Assembly: GCA_963693365.1 (NCBI GenBank)
Contig: CAVNZM010000014.1
Coordinates: 124,001-188,000 of the forward strand
Origin: Amoebidium appalachense
Lineage: Eukaryota; Protista; Ichthyosporea
Length of the DNA: 64,000 nucleotides
Direction: 5' to 3'
How positions within the stretch are numbered: the stretch's first letter is position 1; each line of letters opens with the position of its first letter. The notes beneath the pieces were generated by a model. It had not been told where the DNA came from. It saw only the letters and a list, made by a program, of their open reading frames with translations, and searched no databases. The position numbers were made by a program, and so were the translations under genes. Below, one piece after another: positions 2,845-61,104 of the stretch.

Positions 2845-13378
<10,534 letters not shown>

Positions 13379-14670: not shown

Positions 14671-15840
14671 TTACTTCTTCTTGGCAACACCCACGGTGCG
14701 GCCACGGCGACCAGTGGTCTTTGTGTGCTGACCGCGCACACGCACACCCCACAGGTGGCGCAGACCGCGGTGGTTGCGGATCTTGCGCAGGCGCTCGAGA
14801 TCCTCACGCAGCTTGTTGTCAAGTGCGTTGGCCACCACCTGAAATCACCCACACAGGTCAGAAACCGCATGCTGCAGTTGATCCCAAAGAAGAGCATAAA
14901 CTTAGGATCCCCACTTCCCTCCTCCCGCCACACATGCCCCCTTTTCCCAGACGCACATCTACACACCTAAACCCAAAGGCAAAATCCAGACCACCTCCAC
15001 CTACAAAGTGTTTACCAGGTCAGTCCATCACACCATTGCCTACAACCCACCCCTGCACTCACACCCAGCCCCGTCCGACACATCCCAGCAGAGTGCACGT
15101 GCTTTACCTGGCCGTACTTGCCGTCCTTGATGTCCTTCTGCCTGTTGAGGAACCAGTCGGGGATCTTGTACTGGCGGGGGTTCTGCATGATGGTCACCAC
15201 GCGCTCGACCTCGGCCTCGGTGAGCTCACCGGCGCGCTTGGTCAGATCCACATCGGCCTTCTTGCAGATCAGAGTGGCATAGCGGCGACCCACACCCTTG
15301 ATGGCCGTCAGGGCAAACACGATCTTTGTGCGTCCGTCAACGTTGGTGTTGAGCAGACGCAAGATGTGCTGGAAGTGGCCCGACACGACGAGAGACTGCC
15401 CCCACCCACCACCGTCAGCCCACCACACTTGACAAAACACACACCCCCTCCCCGCCAAAATAAAACAACAGGAACAAGTCGGCGCGCAACTAGTAGAAGT
15501 AGTGCATGGCAAAAGAACCGTCCCTCCTTGGCGTCCCCGTGCCTGAAGCCTTTGTTTAGCTGTATACACCCAACTTAACACCTATGACGACTATTTGGCC
15601 TTCTTACACGAATTTGCCTTATGTTTGCTGAACTTCGTGATTACTGGAAGACCCTCCCAGCTAGTGAACGTGTGTGTGCAGCTTGAGAAAACAACGGCGA
15701 TGTATAGTTTGTCCACCAGTGTTGACTAAAACTCCCAGCTGGTAGGTAGCGATCGCTCAAAATCTTAGCACTCCCCAAAAGCCCTGAGGGATGTCGTCTG
15801 TCCGGAAAGATGCTGTCTGTCGAATCTGCCCAACACGAAG

Positions 15841-21977: not shown

Positions 21978-23795
21978 CTACCAATAGGAAACGAGACACG
22001 TCACCATAGCAACCACCCACATGGCCACCCCACCACGTGCACCATGTGCTGCCTCACTTGCTTTCTGGCTGCTTCCAGCAGGCACCGCATTCAAATTGTT
22101 GCTCGATTTAGCATCACACGTGGTACCGTTTAGGCTCTGCCCAAAATACGAATTTTCAAGTCGGAGGCCAGGGGGGTCCCTTTTGCTCGGGTTGCGAAGA
22201 AGCGGCATGGCATCGGCACGGGAACGAACCCCCCCGCAGATCGTCAAATTCATGGCAAGTGGAGCAATGGGTGGCTTTACATAGGCATATCCACATGCAG
22301 TCCAATTGATTGCGGGATAGTAGAAGACAACATCCAGACACATTTCCTCGTGACTAGCCATCCCGAAACTCACGTTCTTGTCTGTGGGGTTTGTGTACAC
22401 ACAGTGCGTGTTTAACCTATCACCGGGTTTAACCACTACCGGTTTGTCGAGGTTGATGAAGCGTTGGTAGCCAAAGTCGTAGTAGTCTGCCCTGCCTACG
22501 TCACCAAGGTAGGTGCCGTTGCCATCGTGGTGGGTGGTCCACATCTTGGTGCCCACCTGTGTGTGTGTGTGTGTGTGTGTGTATGTTATGCCAGAACATA
22601 GGGGAAAAGAGGCGGTCAGGGCCAACCCGATTCAGCAGTAGCATGGGATATTCGTAACCGTGTCTATCACAAACAATCGCATTTATTTGATTGTTAAATG
22701 AAGCTTCACCCATCACTGGAGGTGATAGCGCCAACAATAAACTTTTTCCATTTACTGCACGTGTTTTTTCTCTCCATCTCCCTCCCTTTTGCGCATGGTG
22801 CTGGTAGGGGAAGGGGCAAGGGGCAAGGGGCAAGGGGGGCGTGTTTTGAATGCGTAATAAGGTACGAAGTACACGACAACAACGGATAACACGATGCAGA
22901 ATGCAAACCATACATAAAGAGTATGCGTCATAAGCAGAGCCGGGGGGGGGGGGGGGGGGGGGGGGGTTGAATGCGGAACACGGTACGAAGTACGCATACA
23001 CGAAGGACACATGCAAAGGCAAACATTCAAGTATGCAACATAGCCATGCGCGCAGTATGCGTCATAAGCAGAGCCCATCTTCAGGGAGGGCCCAAGTCAT
23101 CAATTGCGTCTGAGTTTCGACCCCTTAGCCCGCGTATATACGACTCTCCAACTCAGACAGCAGCATCAACTGAACTTGGGAGGGTCAACCCGTCTTGATC
23201 AAAGACGAGCAGGGTTGCTTATGCAAGCAAGGTGAGCAAACGATGAATATGTGTGTGCAAACTAATGCAGTGCAGCGAAAAATGCGTATGTGCTTACAGA
23301 TGCACGACACAGAGCAACCATGCCCGGTTGCATGGAAGCAAAGCGGTCGGGGGGGGGGTGGGGGGTGGGTGGGGGGCTGCTTTTCTATGGCCACCTACAA
23401 TACAGTCATTTGCCTTGTGAGAATTTTTGCACCCTGACGCCAACGCACAAGCCGGTGCCTACCATGGGCATAGTTGCCGCACACACAAACACAACACCAC
23501 ACAAAATACACACACAAGATACACGCACACATTCACACACCGTCACACGCACATACAAAAAGGAACACACAATAATCAGCCCGCACCCCCCCCCCCCCAA
23601 AAAAAAAAAAAAAATTAAAAATTAAAAAAATACATCAGCAAACCGACACGTTTACGCACCTGGTGCATGTGTGCAAAGTCAGCAAAGATGGTGAGTGATT
23701 GGTTGAGTTTGGCTGTGCACTGTTCGGGGCAATCGTATTCGTACTCAATGGTCTGCCCGGCAGGGATGTTGGAGTCATCGTAGAAAGAGAAGAGG

Positions 23796-23855
<60 letters not shown>

Positions 23856-24047
23856 TTGGGCCATGGGGACCAAGAAGTGAAATGAATTAGTGGTGGATTC
23901 CCACACACACACAACAATGCACTCCATGCCCCGTACCCTCGAGACACACACAAATTAGAGGGAGAAACAAAGGGGAACAAACCCTAGTGTCCCCCCCCCC
24001 GCCCCCCCTCAAAAAAGAAAAAAAAAAAAAAAACGAAAAATAAATAA

Positions 24048-24079
<32 letters not shown>

Positions 24080-25736
24080 CACCGACAAAAGTTTCCCGTT
24101 GTGCACAGTAGTAGTTTTTTCACAGATCCCAACATCCTTGAAACATCGAATGGGCGAGGGGAGTATATGCTTCACAGAGTCATGATGAAATACATATTCA
24201 CGACCGACAACACAGTGCAACTTTATTTATCATAAGTTATTGGGGGGGGGGGGGGGAGACGGGTTATAAAAGAGAGAGAGAGAGAGAGAAGAAAGAGTGA
24301 GAGACACACACGACTGCACTTACCGAGCAGGAGCACACCGGCATCATACTTTCTCTTCTTCTCTGTGATGGTGAAGGCCACACCACTAGAGTCCCTATGC
24401 CCCGCCACATTGCCCGGGTTATCGTAGTGGATCTGCATCACAAAATGTCTGCTGCCCTCATCTCCACCCACCGGGTACCCAACATCGGGCGGAAGCACAA
24501 ACGAGTCCCCCCCCTGTGCAAACGCAAACACATACGCCTCACACCCCTTAACAGAGGCAGGGCATTTCTTGGGGCCATCTGTGTAGTTTGCGTAGTTCGT
24601 AGCGGTGAGGTTGTTAATGCACTTGTGTAGAACCACGTGGTGTACACGTGGCACGTTGGCAACCAGCGACCGCGGATCAACCACAGGATGGAAGGAAATG
24701 ATGTGGTAGCTGTTTTTGCCCGGGAGCACATCGTTCATGTCATACGACGTGCACACATACGAGGTCGTGTTGGTGGGCACCTCGTAGTCGCTAAACGTAA
24801 AGTTGAGCTTCTTCGTCTCCCCATCATCCGTCAATGTCGCACTGCGCGCACCCGGCGTGTTTGCGTAAAATGTTATCTCAGAACCCCCCCTGTTCTTGCC
24901 GTGGTAGCTAAGAGCCCCCCCACTACCCGCAGCCCAAACCACTCTGTTCGGGCCGGCCCGAATAGCCCTGTCCTGTGAGGTATCTCCCGTGTCTAGGGCC
25001 CTCTTGAGGGCAAAATTGATCATCCCATCAGCCGTCTGTTCGGCGGAAATAAGTTCCAGGTTCTGGCAGGTGTCGGCGTCGGGATAGACCTTGGCTAGTG
25101 CGTGTCTGGGGGATAGGGACGGGTGTAAGTATGTATAGGATTGAGGATGTGAGTATGTATAGGGCTAGGAGTGTAGTTCTTCTGACTTGTGCGAGTGCGG
25201 GTGTGCTGTGTGCCTGTTCTCGTCCTGGTTCAGTGTGTGTGTCTGTGTGGATCTCCAGTGCTAACACTTTAGAAACTGCACACCGTAATTGTTGCCCTAC
25301 TACAGGACGCGCAAACATGAAACACATGTTCACAGGCTCCTGCATACTGGGCGGTCAACACAACCCCACCTACCCACACATGCAGCCCTTCATGGCAGCC
25401 CTTCATGCACTCCCACCCTCCCCTCACACTTCACGTCCTACGACACAGCACGTGCACACACCTGTCCACAAGTGTTGCCTTTCCATCAGCCCCGAACTCC
25501 ACACTCCATATGTCGCTTCCCAGCATGCTGCCACTAGTGTACTCGGCTATCCCAAAGGCCAGCCAGCCCTTAGCCTTACAGCTCATAGCCAGCTCTATGC
25601 TGGTGGTGTTGGTGATGTTCCAGGCCACCGTGCAGTTAGGTTCCAGCTCATGTTTTGATGTGTAGGAGGACAGGGAAAAGTTGCCAGCTTGGGCGAGCCC
25701 AAACAGGGCCACAAGGCCCATACTAAGCAGAAGCAT
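21978..25736 (-). CDS. DOMON + copper type II ascorbate-dependent monooxygenase (DBH/MOXD1-like), secreted, probable GPI anchor or C-terminal TM
   Basis: Exons 25462-25736, 24324-25105, 23660-23796, 21978-22556. Features: signal peptide MLLLSMGLVALFGLAQA, DOMON motifs (GWLAFG, GSMLGSDI, RALDTGD, SYHG), copper ligands VHHVVLH, QIHYDNP, AHMH and EEMC, and hydrophobic tail VAMWVVAMVTCLVSYW*. The exon 3 acceptor reads CG rather than AG (see findings). Confidence 0.92.
22845..22941 (-). mobile_element. 5'-truncated copy of the same repeat (subfamily 2-type tail), in tandem with the full copy
   Basis: The minus strand reads GGCTCTGCTTATGACGCATACTCTTTATGTATGG...GTACTTCGTAC...GCATTCAAAA, separated from the full copy by a C-run. 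Confidence 0.85.
22967..23242 (-). mobile_element. Full-length copy of ~270-nt intronic structured repeat (subfamily 1)
   Basis: Reverse-complement match to 58535-58810. Lies in monooxygenase intron 3, sense to the host. Confidence 0.9.
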
Positions 25737-29894: not shown

Positions 29895-31292
29895 ACACAC
29901 TAAGCAGATAGCCAAAGATATCCAGGACTCCTGAAAACAGACCCATAATACTTGTACCTCTGCCACAACGTTCACACTCACACACCACTAAGCAAACAGC
30001 CGTGCCGAATGTACATAGCACACACATGTACATGCAGGCAAACAGTAACCCCCTTATTCACACACACACACGCCGACTTGAACATGGCACAGAATTTGCA
30101 GACACACACACACACATGTTACATGTTGTCCATGATATCTCTGCTACAATGCAGCCCTAATTAAAACTTAGGGAATAGTTAACTGTTCGTCGTAGTGGTG
30201 GGGTGGTTGGTTGGTTGATTGGTTGCCGGGGGGGGGGGGGGGGGGGGGGGGGGGGAGGGGAGGGGGGAGCCTCCGCGGGAGATTTGCCAGCCGTGGTCAA
30301 CGGAGCCGTCGGACCCCCAAAGGGGAGGGGGGGGGGGGGACCGGAGGACCCACCACCCCCTCGAGCAGGTGGCCATGGATCCCCTCTCGAGCCCCCCCCC
30401 CCCCCCCCCACCCCCCCACAGGCATTGTGGAAGAGGCGGGACCACCACAGGAACATGGGAGACCTTAAAATTTTTATCAGTACCCCCCCCCCCCCCCCCC
30501 CCCCCCCCATTTTCCTTTTTTAAAAAGCCTAACGGGGAGAAGGTGGAGGGAGGGGGGGCTGAGAGAAACACGGAGAGGAGTCGGAAGGGCCTGGGGGGGG
30601 GGGGGGGGGGGGGGGAAGAAATCGAAGTGTTTGCACGAAATTTCCCGGTCAAAGTTGATGAGCTTAAATCTACTGCAGGCTTGCAAAGGTGTTTTTCCAT
30701 CAACTTTGGATGGTTGACGGTGCTATGTACTTGTAAGTCACATTCTTACACGACGAGGAAACATATATGGTTGACTGCAAGAGGGATGCATATGGCACAT
30801 GTACATGTGTTGAGCACGTACACAAATTTTCAAATCCCCCCCGGGCCCCCTCCCCCCCCCTCCCCCCCACGCCCCCCCCCCCCCCCCCCCCCCCTTCTTC
30901 CGGCCCCCGGGCACCCCCCCCCCCACCCAAGTACCCCTTCCCATCCCGGGCTAGATCTTCCCCCTCCCCCCTCCCCCCCCTCCCCCCTCTTAACCCCCCT
31001 CCCCCTCAACACACACACACACACGGGCCCTACTCAATCAATTTTGTACAGAACTCATGTCAATGTGTGCTTCGTCGCTGCTAGCTGACAAGTTGTTCCA
31101 CCGGCCCGTCATGGTAGTGTTGAAAGAAACGTTATAAGCAAAAACTGAACGTTGCAAACCCACTCAGTCAGAATAACCGCTAGTGGAACATATCGTGGAT
31201 AGTGGAATGATCGTGGACACTCCTACACCCTAGAATACCCCTGCAAAACGAATTTCGAGGCTCGGAAAAGTTAACTGTGAAAATATATTATC

Positions 31293-31682
31293 ATGACTTT
31301 ATTGATATGCTCAGCAAAATAGAAGCCATCGAGATATCATCGATATCTCGGAGAAGAAAAATACAAAAGCCCTCACTCTCGGATACGGAGGAGATAACGA
31401 CTTAAATAATCATACACCTTAGAAAACTCATCAAACATACCGTGGTTCAACAGATATTCAATAGACGTAATTATCAGGATTATCTAAATAAGCCAGTCTT
31501 CTGATTTCTAACGGAATAATCTGAGATAAATAAATACATCTATCTAAGTTTTTACGAGAAAAAGGTTCTGCACAAAAGTGGCACAAACATTTATGGATAA
31601 TGACTTTATTGATATGCTCAGCAAAATAGAAGACATCGAGATATCACCGATATCTCGGAGAGGAAAATACAAAAGCCCTCAC
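31293..31682 (+). repeat. 84-bp direct repeat pair (31293-31376, 31600-31682), each with an internal palindrome
   Basis: ATGACTTTATTGATATGCTCAGCAAAATAGAAG.CATCGAGATATCA.CGATATCTCGGAGA.GAAAA..TACAAAAGCCCTCAC occurs twice. Confidence 0.9.
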
Positions 31683-35398: not shown

Positions 35399-36427
35399 TT
35401 TGAGGATGGGCTCTGCTTATAATGCATGCTCCTTGTGGTTTGCTCTCTGCATTATGCTGCGCATTATGAAGAATTCGTTCTCTATAACACATCCCCTCCC
35501 TCCCCCCCCTACGGGCACACTTTATCTCCCGAAAGGGAGCAAGGGGTAAGTGTTAAAGACACACTAGTTGAAATTGCTTTTTGGTTCACGGACGTGTGTG
35601 TGTGTCCGAGTGTCTTCCTGGCCCTTGGCTGGGTATGTTTGGTGTTTGGTGGTGGTGTCGGGTGGGCAGACTCGCGGACATGCAGATGCTTTGTGTGGGA
35701 AAGGTGGGTGGGTGGGTGGGAAAGGGGCGAAGGGGGGGGGGGGGGGGGGGGGAGAGGGTGGGAGAATGAGGGGGGTGGGTGGGTGGGTGGGAGAGGGGAA
35801 AAGGCGGGGTGAGGGGGTAGGGGGAGGGGGGAGAATTATCATGCTTGAGGCGTAGGGTTGCATTTTTTTTGTTTGTTGTTTTGTTTCGTTTGTGGTGGTG
35901 GTGGTGGTGTGTGTGTGTGTGTGTGTGTGTGTGCGTTTTGGGGGGGGGAGGGGGGGGGGGGGAGCAGAGACAGAAGGGCAGGTGAGTGTGTGTGTGCATG
36001 GCGGCAGGGAGGGGTTGCATCTGATTGGTGGGGTCTCTATCAGCCTGGCAGTGGTTCCTCAGGGCGGCAACACCGGTCTGGTCGGTGAGGCATCTTCCTC
36101 CCTTCCCCCCCAGTTCCTATCTATATTTTTCTTGCTTCTGCTTACTGCTGCAACTTTAACCCCCGGCCTTTCCCACTGCCCTTGCCTGCATAAGCAACCC
36201 TGCTCGTCTCTGATCAAGACGGGTGACCTACTCATGTTCAAGTGAAACAGTATCTGAGTTGGGTTTCGTTAACGAGGGGAATAGGTCGAAACTCGGGTAC
36301 TGTGGATGACGTGGGCCCCCCCTGAGGATGGGCTCTGCTTATTATGCATCCTCTTTATGTATGGCTTGCATTCTGCATCGTGTTATCCGTTTGTTCTTGT
36401 GTACTTCGTACTTTTTGACGCATTCAA

Positions 36428-36464
<37 letters not shown>

Positions 36465-37327: not shown

Positions 37328-38994
37328 ATGGGCATGGATGTGGATGTGGATGTGGACGCCTGTAGGTTTTTGCCGGGTGTGTGCCTTGGAATCTCGTCTG
37401 TGTGTGCGTGCGTGCGTGGGTGCATGTGTGTGTGCGCGTGTCCGTGCGTACGTGGGTGTGTGTTTGTCTCTCTCTCTTGCTGTGCATGTGTGTGTGGTTT
37501 CCTTATGTGTGTGTTTGCCTTTTGCACGTGGTTTTCATATCTGTTTGTATGCGTATGTGTATGTGTGCCTGTGGTGTGGGTGTGTAATGTAGTAGGCAGT
37601 GAATTGGCGGTGTGTGTATGCATGCGCGCGTGTGTGTGTATGTGCTGGGGGAGGGGGAGGGGGGGGGGGAGGAGAGAGGGATGGCTAAAAGGGAGGCAGT
37701 GACGGGAGAGGCATGGGGACGGAAGGGGGAGCGTGGTGGCGGGGAGAGGTGGGAAAAGGCAGGAATTTAGCAATGCGTGACAACCCACCGTGTGTTTTAT
37801 GTTCCCTTGTGAATCTAACGCATTGCTGCCACAGGCATCCTTACGTGTGAGGCCGGGTGTGTGCTTGAGTGGCTGGACAACCAGCTGGCTGACAAGGGGT
37901 TTGTCATGCCCATAGACCTGGGCGCTAAGGGGAGGTAGGTGAGGGTGCAGGGTGTGCATGCGCAGGGGCAGGGGCACTGAATCACACACGCACAATCGCG
38001 CGCGCATGCACACACACACACACACACACGTACACACACACACACACACACGTGCACACACACATACACACACACACATACACACACAAGCACACACACA
38101 CAAGCACACACACACATGCACAGGCGTTGACACGGACACGGACAGGGACACGGACAGGGACACGGACAGGGACACGGACACGGCTATGGTCATACACCAT
38201 GGGGGACACATTAGCAAACAGAAGCACAGAGACTCACAGCAGTGACGCGCACATACAGTACATGAAGCACGCACACACACACGCGTCTGGGCGTGTGCGC
38301 TCAGTCGGACACAGAAAGGCCTGAAGGCACGTACATACAGCTGGGATCCCTGCACACACCACATGTACACAGGCAACACACGTGCAACAGATGCACATGT
38401 ACACCACATGTACAGACACACTTACACAAGTGATGGTAAGGCTGTAAACACAAACCGCGGCGCTCATGCACGCAACACACACCGGCACACCGACACACGC
38501 GGGCATTCTGGCAGCAGATTTACTCTGTTGTTCTGGCACGCCCTATTGCAAACTGTCCCACCCCAACTCTCCCATCGCTGCATGACGACGCACGTGCTGT
38601 CGTTGTATTTGGTTGTGTGCTTTTGCACCCAATGTGCACGATGCACCACACCCTAAACCCCATGCATACACCACACCCTAAACCCCATGCATACACCACA
38701 CCCTAACCCCTATATTCCATATACCACACCCTAACCCCTATATTCCACACACCACACCCTAACCCCTATATTCCATATACCACACCCTAACCCCTATATT
38801 CCACACACCACACCCTAACCCCTATATTCCATATACCACACCCTAACCCCTATATTCCACACACCACACCCTAACCCTCATGCTATTACAGCTGTCACAT
38901 TGGGGGTAATGTGGCCACCAATGCTGGGGGTATCCGCTATCTGCGCTACGGCTCTTTGCACGGCAATGTGCTTGGCATCAAGGCTGTACGTAAA

Positions 38995-39803: not shown

Positions 39804-40072
39804 GGGAGGAGAAAGGAAAATAGAAAAGGATGGGAAAGGGAGCTTGGGAAATTTCCGAGACGGGGGGAGAGAGGAGGCCGTGTGCAAGAATCTGACCCTG
39901 CAAACGGCATGCCAAGTGAATGGAGAAGGAAAAAGGCTCATACTATTGTAAATGGTTACGGACAATCGTCATGGGGCTGTAGCTCAGTGGTAGAGCGCTC
40001 GCTTTGCATGCGAGATGCCTTGGGTTCGATCCCCAACTGCTCCAGATCTTTCCTTTTTTGTTTTGTTGCACT

Positions 40073-40220: not shown

Positions 40221-41254
40221 CTATATATATATATTCCCCCTTTTTCGTCGCCGCAATTCCAATTTTTTCCTTCTCCTTCACGCCAAGCATTTCTTTATTC
40301 ATGTGTGTGTGTGTGTTGCTTTTACCAGGATTTATGTTGTTAGAGGGTTAGGTGTGCTCGATGGAAGCTTTATGTTGCAGGGGAGGGCTTTCCCTCGATT
40401 GGGAACTGTGGGGCTGTAGCTCAGTGGTAGAGCGCTCGCTTTGCATGCGAGATGCCTTGGGTTCGATCCCCAACTGCTCCATACTTTTTCCCCTTTCTCT
40501 TTTTGACTTCTTTTTGACCTTCTGTCATTCCCGTTTTTGTTATCTTGTAATTGTTGCCCTCCCGCCAAACGAAATCTTTCTGCCCCTGTTACACTGCGTT
40601 TCCTTCTGTTCGGTTCCCCTTTCAGTTTTTTTGTTGCCCTCTTGCCCTCTCTGCTCCATAATCCTTCCCTGTTTATTGCATTTGATAGAACTTTGTGTTG
40701 TTTTCAGTCCATGAGACCTGCAACTGCATGCACATGTGATGATTGCCTTTTTGCCTCCCGGCCACTCTCCCTGCCTCTCCCGTTTTGTCAATCAATCACG
40801 ACCTCCACCTAAAGAGAGAGCTGGATGTTTATATGCAGCTATATTTGTGTATGCCTCTGTGTATTTATTTGCTAAAGCGCGCATGCTCACCGGTATGTTC
40901 GGGAAAGTGTTTCCTTGTTCGCTAGGGTGGGATACCAACGAAGATATGAAGAACATGAGTTCAATGTTGTAAGATCGTGGTCCGTCCCCGGTCTCCAACC
41001 GGGGCTGTAGCTCAGTGGTAGAGCGCTCGCTTTGCATGCGAGATGCCTTGGGTTCGATCCCCAACTGCTCCACGGTTTTTTTTTTCTTCTTTTTTTTTTT
41101 TCTCCCCTTTCTTTTTTTTCTTTTTCTTTTTTCTTTTTCTTTTTTTTTTTTTTTTTTGGTTCAGGGAGGGGGAGGGGGAGAGGGAGTAGGGGGGGGGGGG
41201 GGGGGGGGGGGTATACATCTTCCCCTCCCCTCTGCACCCCCCATTTCCCCCCTC

Positions 41255-42069: not shown

Positions 42070-43843
42070 CCGTCAACGTTGCATTCCTTGGCTGCAGCAG
42101 CTATGAGGATGTGTGCCGCATTCTGTCCGAGTCAAAGCGCCAACTCGGTGAAATTCTGTCCGGTATATACCCCTGACACTGCTTAGAAGGGAAAAAGACT
42201 GAGGGGGGAAGGGAAGGGGGGTTTTTTTTTTGGGGGGGGGGGGGGGGGAGGGGGAGGGGGGGGGGGGGGGAGGAGATGGCTTTGAGGAGTGAGTAGGATG
42301 GGCAAGGGTAGACAGAGTGGTCTCTTCTGTATGGGTGTGAGATGATGGGTGGCTCATGGAGTCAGGTGGTGGTGGTGGTGGTGGTGATATTGTGTGTGAT
42401 TGTGTGTGATGGTGTGTTAAGTCGGGGAGGGGGGGAGGAGGAGGGGGGTGGTTTTCGATAGTACTCGTATCAATAGTGTGTGTTGACACACGTACCACCT
42501 TGCCTAACAAGGCTTAACCTGACTCCTGCCCGCCCCCCCTTCCTTCTGCAGCATGTGAGTTCCTTGATGATGGCAGCATGAATGCCGTCACCACCCACCT
42601 CAAGCGCACAAACCCCGTCAGTGGATCCTACCCGTTCTATGCCCTGATCGAGACATCGGGCTCAAACAACGACCACGATATGGAGGTACTTACTGCACGC
42701 CCATATAGCTCATATATATGTGTGTGGCTTGCCTCTTGCTGTTCACTGTGTGCTGCAGCCATGCGCGCATGAATGGACATCCTGGTGCAGACAACCCTTC
42801 CCCCCCCCCCCCTCCTCCCCCCCCCCCCCGCGGCCCTTCCTACCCACCCACCCAGAACCCAGTCCATGTTCAAGTGAAGCAGTATTTGGTTGGGCTTCGT
42901 CACAGGGTGAATTGGTCGGAACTCGGGTACCGTGGGTGACTTGCCCCCTCCTAGAGAGGAGCTCTGCTTATTATCCATATGTTTCTGTGTTTTGCACTCT
43001 GCAATATGTTGCCCGTTTATCATGTTTACTTCGTAAATTATAATGCATTATACCCCCCCTCCCCCCCCCCCCCAACCCTTGCCCCCCCCCCCACCCACAC
43101 CCACACACCTACCCCCCCCCCCCCACACACACACACACACGCAACCCCCCCCCCCCCCCCCCCCCCCCCCCCACACACACACACAGAAACTCAACAACTT
43201 CTTGGAGCACATTATGGGTGAGGGCTACTGCCTGGACGGCACCTTGGCACAGGACTCGAAGCAGGTTCGTGTGTGTGTGTGTGTGTTGTTGTGTGTGCGC
43301 GACCGCGTGCGTGTGTGCGTGCGCGCTTGTATGCGTGCTTGTATGCGTGCGTGCGTGGGCGTGCGTGCGTGGGCGTGCGTTGTGTGTGTGTGGGGATGGG
43401 TTGTTGGAAGGGTGTGTGGGTGGTGGCGGCAGCGGCGGCGGCAGCGGTGGTGTGTTTGTGTATGTGCTTTTTTTTGGGGGGGGGGGGGGGGGGGGGGAAG
43501 AGGTGGGGGGTGAGGGGTGAGGGGGTGAGGGGAGGGGGGGGGGGGAGGAGAGAGAGAGAGAAGGGGGGGGGGGGATTGGTCTAAAGATCTGTATGCGCAT
43601 GTGGGGTTGTGCGCACACGATTGTGGTTATCGTGTTGTGTGTGCGTGTGTGTGTGTTTGTTGTGGGGGGGAGGGGGGAGGGGAGATATAGATGATTGTGG
43701 CCTACATTGTTGTTCGAGGTCTGGATGAGTTTGTGGCAAGACCGAGGAAGGGCAGGAGAAAAGATGACACGGGGGGGGGGGAAGGGGGGGGGGGGGGGGG
43801 GGGGGGGGGAGGGTGTGTGGGGCGGTTTAATTTTTTTTCCTTT

Positions 43844-46752: not shown

Positions 46753-54044
<7,292 letters not shown>

Positions 54045-58153: not shown

Positions 58154-58238
<85 letters not shown>

Positions 58239-58308
58239 TAGGAACCGAAGGAGAGCCATCTCCAACTCCATGGATCGCAGTGAAGCCACCACAAAAATGC
58301 TCGAGGTC

Positions 58309-58361
<53 letters not shown>

Positions 58362-59309
58362 AAAAAAAAACTCGGGTACTGTGGATGACGTGGGCACCTC
58401 CTGAGGATGGGCTCTGCTTATTATGCATACTCTTTATGTATGGTTTGCACTCTATATCCTGTTATCCGTTGGTCATGTGTACTACGTACTTTATGACGCA
58501 TTCAAACCCCCCCCCCCCCCCCCCCCCCCCCCCCGTTTTGCTCACCTTGCTTGCATAAGCAACCCTGCTCGTCTTTGATCAAGACGGGTTGACCCTCCCA
58601 AGTTCAGTTGATGCTGCTGTCTGAGTTGGAGAGTCGTATATATGCGGGCTAAGGGGTCGAAACTCAGACGCAATTGATGACTTGGGCCCTCCCTGAGGAT
58701 GGGCTCTGCTTATGACGCATACTGCGCGCATGGCTATGTTGCATACTTGAATGTTTGCCTTTGCATGTGTCCTTCGTGTATGCGTACTTCGTACCGTGTT
58801 CCGCATTCAACCCCCCCCCCTCCCCCCTGCTTTTCTCAGAAGTCATCTGTGAGGGCCCCTCTGCCGAAGCTTAAATGTCACACCCACACATGCACCCTCT
58901 TGTTTTTGACCACCCTGCCTTGCCCCCCCCCCCCCCCCCCCCCCCACCCCAAAAAAAAAGAAAGAAAAAAAGAAGAAAAGAAAAGAAAACGTGCACCCAC
59001 ACAGCGGCATACGCAAACGCACACAGGCACACACGTGTGCAGGCATACCTCCTGCACATGCACGGGTGTACACAGACAAAACGCACAGAGATATACACAC
59101 ATGCAGGCATGTGCGCGCGCACACACACTGACCTCATCCCTTCCCCCCCCCTCCCCCCCCTCCCCCCCCCCCCCCCCCCCCCCCCCTCCCCAACACACAC
59201 ACACAAACACGCACGACCGAGTGAAACCAGTTTTTACGTCACTTCTTTCTCAGTCTTGGAGAAAAAACACACTTTCTTCCTCAGCGCCCCCCCCCCCCCC
59301 CCCCCCTTC

Positions 59310-59345
<36 letters not shown>

Positions 59346-59482
59346 TCCCCCTCCCCCCTCCCCCCAGATCTGACTTCCTATCCTCGATTTTCTGCATCCT
59401 ACCCCCCCCCCCCACCCCCCACCCCACCCACTCACCTCCTGTACGTCTGTGCCCCATGGCTTACCACCTCTTCCACCCCCCT

Positions 59483-59513
<31 letters not shown>

Positions 59514-60282
59514 CAGGTGGCCGGCAATCTAGACAAAAGCCTTCTAGACAGTTCCATGGCTGGGTTCCAACTCCTCAGCGAGACACGCTATCTCCTAAAA
59601 TGGACTGCTGCAAAACACGTGCGCGTGAGCTTTGTGCAGACAGACACAGACACAGAGCCTGCAAGCACACACTCAAACGACACCCAGTCAACACACACAA
59701 TCACACCTACAAGCAGCTTCACTTTAGAAAAGAGTTTACCCTCACGACGCAACTCGCACTATGTCGATTCTGGTTGCGGTGATAGGAAATCACCTGATGG
59801 AAGGTCTGAACTAGCGCTACCTATGTTGCATCAGTATGCGGCCGACTATAATTCTGAATTTGTGAAATACAAGGATGTGCACGTGTTCTTGTTTAACGAT
59901 CTTGTGCTGATTGTTAAACACGTGGCTAGGAGATATGTGGCTCTGTCTGTGCCGCTCTATCTGAAGTCCTTGGTCGTCTACGAGTGCGAGGTGTGCCCCC
60001 CTCCCCCCCTTCCCTCTCTCCCTTTCTCTCTTTCTCCCTCTCTCTCTCTCTCCCTCCCCCTCCCCCTTCCCCACCCTCCTCCACTTTTTCTTCTTGGTCT
60101 TTTGCGTTTGGTGTTACAAGTCCATTCTAGGTGCACGCATGCCCCCAAAACCACGGCCAGCGCACCAGCCCTCCTCTACCCCTCAACCGTGTTGTATGTT
60201 TGTGTTCTAGATCATCGCCACTAATACCCGCATACACAACATGCACATGCTCACACACAAACACACACACAAACACACAAAC

Positions 60283-60429: not shown

Positions 60430-61104
60430 ACTCGCTCGCATCACACACACACACTGTCACTCACTCACATGACACACCGCACACACACACACACGTGCAT
60501 GCACACACGAGCAAGACACCCGCACGCCGCACACAGACCCACACGCACATCTTCCTCCAGTTGCTCCCCACCCATCCCCTCACCCTCCACCCCCCCCTTG
60601 AGATTGGGCTCCGCTTATGATGCATATTCCTTTCCTTTCATTGCTTTTCAATCTGCACTGTGTTGCCCGTCATGTGCTCAGGAACACATTCTTAACCCCC
60701 CTCCACCCCCCCCCCCTTCCCTCTCTCCCTCCCTCCCTCCTTCCCGCCGGGGAGGGAACCCACCGTACGGATTGAGCTGAACTAAATAACCCCCCCCCCC
60801 CCCCCCCCTCCTTCCCCCACCCCACCCCCCCCCCCCCCCCCCCCCCCACCCCCTGCACATGCACACAGACAAGTGCGTGCGCACGCACACACGCACACAC
60901 ACACACACATGCACACACACACACACATGCACACACACACATGCACACACACACACACACACAGCCACCCATGTATCAGGCAAGCCACAAGTTCCGTCTT
61001 GTGTTTGGCGACTACCAATACGTGCTCAAGGTGGGGGGGCCGGAGGAGAGGAACGAATGGGTCACACAGACAATAGGTGCCACGGAGTGGCTGGATACAG
61101 TGGA

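Follow-up and report, generated by a model that had tools for sequence, protein, structure and literature searches.

The repeat around position 58k of the window (the whole stretch of 64,000 nucleotides analysed here) raises the question whether a hammerhead ribozyme can be formed by a core whose segments are permuted and also split. All hammerhead core segments are present in the order UH, GAAA, CUGAnGA, and the core is split between A9 and G10.1. The initial annotation had described a hammerhead core in a non-canonical order, and this description was supported by the motif positions, by a descriptor search and by the stems. CUGAGGA was found at 58693-58699, cGAAAC at 58658-58663 and GUU at 58625-58627, and the three proposed stems were present: stem III at 58619-58626/58662-58669 (8 bp including U16.1-A15.1), stem I at 58628-58631/58689-58692 and stem II at 58591-58596/58653-58658. 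The core nucleotides C3, U4, G5, A6, N7, G8, A9, G12, A13, A14, A15.1, U16.1 and H17 occur in three whole copies of the repeat, with U as H17. In the split motif stems I, II and III abut the core, with the pairs G10.1-C11.1 and A15.1-U16.1, and stem I has just 3-4 bp. The motif is larger than the extent first given for it (58591-58706) and runs from about 58554 to 58714. CUGAAGA in the 23k copy, which had been cited as variation at the free N7 position, was read correctly, but it is little evidence, being a single substitution confined to one copy and missing from the list of variants at 2% or more of depth.

Both strands of the window were searched with a descriptor of the order UH-GAAA-CUGAnGA, and only the three whole copies (58k, 23k and 36k) matched. 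The bases after A9 form at most two pairs with the strand before GAAA, and the upstream GACC strand forms 5-6 Watson-Crick pairs with it. The strand carrying G10.1 is located 108 nt upstream of A9, where a hammerhead has a direct link or one of 1-2 nt. In 60,000 dinucleotide shuffles of the 275-nt element, the core with stem III of at least 5 bp and stem I of at least 3 bp was found in 13; when an upstream stem II of at least 4 bp was added, 1 was left, and the observed strength was reached in 0, with a descriptor that, for shuffles and window alike, was written with the motif already seen. The split hammerhead pattern exceeds chance. At the gathering score, Rfam matched only three tRNAs in the window and no hammerhead of type I-III, and E-value scans of both subfamilies of the repeat against Rfam gave sub-threshold matches only. 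Hammerhead_1 showed a 14-bit partial match (E=2.7) to stem II and GAAA of subfamily 2. Hammerheads of types I-III have the circular order C, G, S of their blocks and no core pseudoknots, and the order here is S, G, C. Folding of the whole element was unremarkable (z = -1.27 and -0.46 for the two subfamilies, from folds that cannot score pseudoknots). HDV-like, twister and pistol readings were compared by eye with consensus features and rejected, as no P1.1/L3 or T1/T2 pattern was common to both subfamilies.

The hammerhead had also been called, tentatively, topologically novel. The order UH-GAAA-CUGAnGA is in fact not new, since it is shared by type SGC of Eckert et al. 2023 (PMC10085705); what appears to be new here is the break inside block C, together with the P0/hairpin module and the kink-turn described below. 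In the available part of that paper, the hammerhead is divided into blocks C, G and S, and types SGC and CSG were found and validated in vitro. Their sources were metatranscriptomes and metagenomes, with one doubtful GCS case as the only one from genomes of known organisms; the type SGC examples came from metatranscriptomes only, and type CSG was known from just two metagenome sequences. CUGAnGA and the adjoining stem strands were taken as staying together. Type-SGC ribozymes cleave in cis, some of them linking their 'I' helix to stem III without a linker, and hammerhead stems II and III stack coaxially (PMC10085705, same part).

The window RNA resembles type SGC in its S, G, C order, in having all core nucleotides, in its pseudoknotted stems I-III and in a helix, D, that connects stems I and II at their far ends. 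It differs from the SGC ribozymes in the available part of PMC10085705 in that block C is not continuous but broken after A9, with the G10.1 strand moved to the 5' end. In addition, the gap is filled by P0 and a hairpin, a kink-turn links D with stem III on both strands, the RNA is about 160 nt long instead of about 80, and its source is a nuclear repeat instead of metatranscriptomes only. As helix D has the connectivity of the SGC 'I' helix, the window RNA can be described as SGC with the old ends joined and reopened between A9 and G10.1. Type CSG has the same non-canonical circle, and circular permutation converts the split form, SGC and CSG into one another; in CSG, however, A9-G10.1 is continuous (0-1 nt) and the circle is opened between stem III and D. 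The PK hammerhead of Zhan et al. 2024, as described in the available part of PMC11300833, likewise combines hammerhead chemistry with a pseudoknotted scaffold, but loop II takes part in its pseudoknot, A9 runs on into G10.1 and the blocks stand in canonical order. Neither a split-core hammerhead nor permuted Naiad hammerheads were found in the literature searched, which was mainly open-access and included supplements in part.

The subfamily-1 copy with the whole motif is located at 58537..58811 on the forward strand, as are all its parts described here, and has (C)n on both sides; its 5' end is not fixed. The 5' strands of P0 occupy 58554..58565. P0b (58554-58561) pairs with 58707-58714 (8/8 pairs, probability 0.88-1.0 in the nested ensemble) and P0a (58563-58565) with 58701-58703 (3/3 pairs, probability 0.21). 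Folding gave an 8-bp 5' hairpin at 58568..58588, directly ahead of G10.1. P0 and this hairpin bridge A9 to G10.1 in the split motif, where a helical domain had been expected by the initial annotation. The 5' strand of stem II (58591..58596, G10.1 being 58591) pairs with 58653-58658 as a pseudoknot, and 2/6 of its pairs change on both sides. Next to it is the 5' strand of helix D (58597..58606; 7 bp, a bulged U, 2 bp), which pairs with 58678-58686 and has one two-sided and one one-sided change in subfamily 2. The bulged strand of a predicted kink-turn follows at 58607..58612, with the bulge at 58607-58609 and the pairs G58610.A58677, A58611.G58676 and U58612.U58675. A C helix, a 3-nt bulge and tandem G.A and A.G were present by sequence at 58605-58612/58675-58679 and at 36239-36246/36304-36308; the motif thus also occurs in subfamily 2, with the bulge and third pair differing. 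The kink-turn is predicted to join stem III to helix D.

Block S (58619..58627), identified by sequence and folding, contains the stem III 5' strand with G16.2 at 58625 and U16.1 at 58626, followed by U17 at 58627. By analogy with known hammerheads, the cut would fall between 58627 and 58628. The stem I 5' strand (58628..58631) pairs with 58689-58692, again as a pseudoknot, and the stem is GGG/CCC in subfamily 2; as a duplex stem I gives -2.5 to -3.7 kcal/mol, and the two pseudoknots as duplexes amount to -8.7 and -3.7 kcal/mol. A variable linker between stems I and II (58632..58652) forms a weak hairpin and then AA, and has variants at 58632 and 58643. By sequence, block G (58653..58669) consists of the stem II 3' strand (C11.1 at 58658), GAAA at 58659-58662 and the stem III 3' strand. 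The kink-turn's non-bulged strand and the helix D 3' strand (58675..58686, sequence and folding) precede a truncated block C (58689..58699, sequence), which has the stem I 3' strand and CUGAGGA (C3-A9) without a stem II strand after it. The P0 3' strands after A9 are at 58700..58714, and the 3' tail of the repeat, then a C tract, at 58715..58811. Bases 58701-58706 can pair instead with 58684-58689, which places CUGAGGA in the loop of a competing hairpin. The initial annotation had cautioned about this hairpin, and it is indeed within 2 kcal/mol (-40.3 kcal/mol, against -42.3 for the P0a and D skeleton), with pair probabilities of up to 0.76 in the nested ensemble. Nested folding, which cannot score the two pseudoknots, backs P0b, the 5' hairpin, D and stem III in subfamily 1; in subfamily 2 it backs stem III, whereas D is weak there (0.02-0.10). 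The distance from the core to the kink is 16 steps in both subfamilies despite their differing sequences.

Invariance of the core had been proposed as a check, and all 17 of the 17 core positions were identical between the subfamilies, compared with 57/92 of the other positions in 58591-58699 (Fisher p=0.0007, for one pairwise comparison of the subfamilies). The flanks were conserved as much as the core (42/46 and 14/14), and conservation alone therefore does not single out the core. Stems II and III and helix D covary between the subfamilies. In alignment A1, where the structure is taken from the first sequence and both sides of most pairs are spanned by just four rows, pairing was found in 96.2% of 156 cells and a two-sided change in 4/45 pairs; slid controls gave 29-46%. 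Variants at 2% or more of depth were detected at five positions inside 58591-58699 and at 0 in the core, an avoidance that says little, given how few positions vary. The change 58596 T>A, together with loose ends that read UGGGUC before GAAA, suggests a third variant of stem II. Overall, the fold of the split hammerhead is almost certainly real.

In total 11 copies of the repeat were detected in the window, three with the whole motif and eight 5'-truncated partial ones. Subfamily 1 comprises the 58k and 23k copies, which are 99% identical, and subfamily 2 the 36k copy, which is 79% identical over 179 aligned bases. The 23k copy (22966..23240, reverse strand) and a partial copy in tandem after it (22845-22941, reverse strand, by sequence comparison) lie in sense within one intron of an intron-rich DOMON and copper type II monooxygenase gene (21981-25164, reverse strand). 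The whole motif of subfamily 2 is at 36180..36428 (forward strand), with stem II at 36225-36230/36282-36287, a stem III of 13 bp, U17 at 36260 and CUGAGGA at 36322-36328. A 5'-truncated subfamily-2 copy that starts inside GAAA (58368..58506, forward strand) is in tandem immediately upstream of the 58k copy. Another, at 42865..43049 (forward strand), is decayed and has GGAA for GAAA, and its core is damaged. Sequence comparison located further partial copies at 2440-2487, 5556-5651, 35401-35490 and 60598-60694 (forward strand) and at 51832-51871 (reverse strand). The stretches upstream of whole copies, 23241-23350 (reverse strand) and 36100-36180 (forward strand), may be parts of longer elements; in runs X15 and X16, contigs carry on with the same letters as the 36k upstream stretch, which has no second copy in the window. 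Exon-like frames at 58225-59990 (forward strand), with a weak PH-domain match (E=0.009), flank the 58k copy and suggest that it also lies in sense inside an intron.

The gene models of the window show compact, intron-containing host genes. An exon of ribosomal protein S18/uS13 (RPS18) is located at 15015-15581 (reverse strand), and among the best 120 of its 2597 matches the identity was 83-86% to animal and 84% to chytrid and ichthyosporean sequences, which makes an opisthokont host likely. The exon of the monooxygenase gene had no match at E<=1e-20. Three identical tRNA genes with a UGC anticodon (Ala) form a short cluster at 39973-40044, 40410-40481 and 41001-41072 (forward strand). Other repeats include a 28-bp tandem repeat (8.6 copies) and a second stretch, with CCCTAA-like telomeric words, at 38644-38877 and 52250-52600 (reverse strand), two adjoining minisatellites, one with 9 copies of a 21-bp unit at 9107-9297 and one with 4.2 perfect copies of a 24-bp unit at 9403-9504, and an 87-bp direct repeat, 94% identical, at 31290-31376 and 31597-31682.

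The repeat was found to be very abundant: in run X1, 9,209 contig pieces could be placed on the 275-base copy, and in run X7, 3,796. A C-rich tract follows 10/10 copies checked, and 6% of window positions lie 30 bases or less before a C8 run. Contigs from the sequencing runs also showed head-to-tail joints elsewhere in the genome, leading from the 3' end back to 58605, 58660 and 58687. The Penelope-like context suggested at the outset thus finds support in the 5' truncation, partial tandems and C-rich tracts of the repeat. No reverse transcriptase or GIY-YIG partner was found in the 17 scanned of 241 window ORFs, so the Penelope link is drawn from likeness. By its sequence traits, the repeat is likely the non-autonomous tail of a Penelope-like retroelement of the Naiad/Chlamys type, and we consider its mobilisation in the Penelope manner probable. 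Pattern scans gave 0 matches to the family in metagenome contigs, prokaryote genomes and viral contigs. Other pattern scans of viral contigs gave 8 and 9 loci, which lacked supporting stems and were judged by eye to be chance.

According to the available part of Craig et al. 2021 (PMC8557442), Naiad and Chlamys elements have no canonical hammerheads, and some Naiads are marked 'HHR_core' or 'HHR_half_core' for a core or half-core that fits no descriptor. From the absence of hammerheads it was concluded that these may be mere parasites of Penelope elements. The targets of Chlamys elements are (C)n/(CA)n, and tandem derivatives of them exist that are non-autonomous (PMC8557442, same part). The window repeat shares with Naiad/Chlamys the 5' truncation, the partial tandems, the microsatellite targets and the non-autonomous derivatives, and differs in that no ORF or reverse transcriptase was seen in it. 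Its affinity is mixed, with a fold as in Naiads and a (C)n target as in Chlamys, in contrast to the (TA)n of Naiad.

In the available part of the supplement of the same paper, at least 10/54 Naiad consensus sequences were found by eye to have the same split layout with unrelated stem sequences. They form seven sequence-unrelated sets: Naiad_Bfor (Beroe); one Clytia entry; Naiad_Amil, _Aacu and _Anas of Acropora; Naiad-2_Movir (Morbakka-2); Naiad_Plae (Pomphorhynchus); a part-19 entry after the Naiad_EuTe header; and Naiad_Obim and _Ovul of Octopus. The names were taken from neighbouring headers and file order, and the pairings were read by eye, not computed. The inspected places of CUGAnGA numbered 58/62, 25/25, 23/23 and 30/43 for its four spellings, with others hidden by line breaks, and the count of ten is therefore a lower bound. 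In these Naiad motifs stem II has 4-6 bp, stem III 5-12 bp, stem I 2-6 bp (4-6 bp except for the 2 bp of Naiad_Bfor) and D 5-15 bp. In 6/7 sets P0 starts 0-1 nt past A9 and the hairpin ends 0-1 nt before G10.1, as in the window repeat. The strand before GAAA is GCC, GUC or CCC, each with a matching partner strand, and the Octopus pair has a kink-turn at the joint of D and III in the opposite orientation. The catalytic positions, a non-G H17 and both core-adjacent pairs are kept in both window subfamilies and the seven Naiad sets as read there, while the stems turn over.

Other permutations were also seen by eye in this part of the supplement. Six Naiads of the nematode section carry intact type-CSG motifs, namely Naiad-1, -2 and -3_Nbra and three more (one part-13 entry, one part-15 entry and the entry before Naiad_Lpol). 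Two Naiads of the chelicerate section (parts 16-19) have the SGC order with stem II weak or replaced. No permutation could be fitted by eye to four Naiad entries of parts 17-19 with CUGACGA inside a hairpin loop, and no permuted hammerhead form was found in the available Chlamys passages of PMC8557442.

These parallels bear on how the window RNA might work. By analogy with known hammerheads, the repeat RNA probably cleaves after U58627 by some route. The reading we favour, with slightly better than even chances, is a split hammerhead in a Penelope-like tail, with a predicted cut after U58627, that acts mostly as a domain-swapped dimer. Catalysis would take place in an ordinary hammerhead core, with the cut 3' of U58627. 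After transcription of the repeat, partial tandems would place two motifs in one RNA, or two RNAs would meet. Each copy would form a bent rod of stem III, kink-turn and D; one end would carry the cut site and GAAA, the opposite end the G10.1 strand and CUGAnGA. The rod ends would then dock on the opposite ends of a second rod and give two ordinary active sites. The cut would free a unit-length RNA that may circularise or template the reverse transcriptase of a partner element, and solo intronic copies would mostly stay uncut. A9 and G10.1 would be kept together by P0 and the hairpin in place of a bond, and stems I, II, D and the linker would meet at the far ends of I and II, replacing the loop-loop contact.

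The dimer route is proposed because the 9 bp of D are too short for the about 25 bp of stem II, core and 16 stem III steps within one molecule. The rise per base pair is about 2.8 A. The geometry of this monomer distance combines that rise with the coaxial stack of stems II and III in the available part of PMC10085705. One molecule would have to melt conserved pairs, and two antiparallel rods would satisfy every helix. The summed lengths of stem III and D in 8 sets, read in part from the Naiad supplement, were 13, 13, 13, 14, 15 or 22, 22, 25 bp, about one turn apart, and a relation D = III + 9, as a fold-back monomer would need, was not seen in them by eye and post hoc; this length pattern is suggestive, again post hoc, of the dimer. 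The initial annotation had raised dimer dependence, and the helix lengths and the minimal dimers of Penelope hammerheads make it a plausible requirement. In the available parts of PMC4209133 and bioRxiv 10.64898/2026.07.22.740005, minimal type I Penelope hammerheads cleave as dimers, and single-base insertions between A9 and G10.1 are common and tolerated. Those of Penelope elements and non-LTR retrozymes are likewise found in small non-coding repeats with dimer-dependent cleavage, but, as far as these parts describe them, their order is C, G, S, their dimer forms via a missing stem III and the insertion after A9 is one base. The proposed dimer of the window RNA would instead swap stems I and II, and two helices are inserted after A9.

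The same ribozyme with the same cut site could also act as a monomer, in which D is folded back by the kink-turn and the extension of stem III melts in part, bringing the 5' G10.1 strand and CUGAnGA within reach of their own core; we regard this as unlikely. Type-SGC ribozymes cleave in cis, in some cases with the 'I' helix joined to stem III linker-free (PMC10085705, available part), and a bend (kink-turn, bulge or three-way junction) was present at the joint of D and III in every set read, including those from the available Naiad supplement. Subfamily 1 is weakly paired between its 8-bp stem III and 7-bp D, which leaves possible linkers of 15 and 10 nt, the sets with a short stem III (5-7 bp) are near reach, and two of the nematode type-CSG entries as seen in the supplement have 10-16 nt linkers suiting a monomer. 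However, stem III of subfamily 2 has 13 continuous pairs, and on the 3' strand just 5 nt separate it from D; the part-19 Naiad as seen there has a stem III of 10 bp, a D of 5 bp and a 1-nt bulge, and the constant 16 steps from core to kink fit a formed helix.

It is improbable, more so than the monomer, that the fold is real in a family that no longer cleaves, as a binding platform for a reverse transcriptase or a Snu13/L7Ae-type kink-turn protein, or with CUGAGGA locked in the hairpin. The high pair probabilities of the competing hairpin in subfamily 1, the flanks conserved as much as the core and the intact copy in sense inside a host intron would fit this reading. The anole Penelope hammerhead, moreover, needs protein help, and its cleavage is dispensable for insertion in vitro; reverse transcription of that element starts internally, and RNA ends at the active site are absent. 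These anole facts would equally explain under the dimer reading why 0/8 partial copies in the window start at the predicted cut, a caveat of the initial annotation that held, as well as the tolerance of an intact copy lying in sense within an intron. Against a loss of cleavage, the catalytic positions, the non-G H17 and the core-adjacent pairs are kept in both subfamilies and in the seven Naiad sets seen in part, and the pseudoknots, which nested folding ignores, disfavour the hairpin. The depth of run X16 (guessed to be RNA) counts neither way: near the motif the RNA/DNA depth ratio was lowest in the bin starting at the predicted cut (5.8 vs 9.7 and 15.7), but equally low ratios were found at 58777-58796 (5.2 and 6.0), a contig of X15 from the same sample spans the site (58537-58669), and contigs cannot show RNA ends.

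Coincidence in a SINE-like repeat, with GGTCGAAAC (one mismatch off the Pol III B-box consensus) and UGAUGA/CUGA box C/D snoRNA elements behind the pattern, is very improbable: CUGA does occur twice and UGAUGA once in subfamily 1 and whole-element folding is ordinary, but neither tRNAs nor snoRNAs matched over the motif, whether at gathering score or up to E=5 (a sub-threshold scaRNA match falls downstream of it), neither an A/B-box head as in tRNA-derived SINEs nor C/D boxes flanking guides were found, the repeat starts at least 50 nt ahead of any A-box-like site, subfamily 2 lacks the match to box C, stems I-III are explained by neither B-box nor C/D boxes, the shuffle test disagrees, and the Naiad parallels from the available supplement, which vary before GAAA along with their partners, largely refute it.

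At its widest, the split hammerhead reading would make this RNA a fourth hammerhead break, with the core divided at A9/G10.1 and reassembled by a scaffold of seven helices that closes only when two RNAs form a ring braced by kink-turns. It would be the ribozyme hidden in the Naiad/Chlamys clade, with split, CSG and SGC as its permutations, and would here reach a (C)n-targeting family of a compact-genome opisthokont perhaps outside animals. We put this forward tentatively, as a possibility with less than even chances. The window adds to the Naiad sets a (C)n-targeting family, two covarying subfamilies and the longest stem III extension among the sets compared. In Eckert et al. 2023 (PMC10085705), the sole paper on non-circular RNA permutations, the part available assumes that CUGAnGA and the stem II strand are inseparable, and this assumption is broken here. 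The permutations would also shift from anonymous metatranscriptome contigs to nuclear genomes, at high copy. A two-copy ribozyme, if true, would offer engineers a two-part (AND-type) cleaving module from nature and a site within the core where a helix can be inserted. If the motif cleaves, the inference that hammerheads merely parasitise Penelope elements falls, and, if two copies are indeed needed, tandem transcripts would be cut to unit length while solo intronic copies would be harmless.
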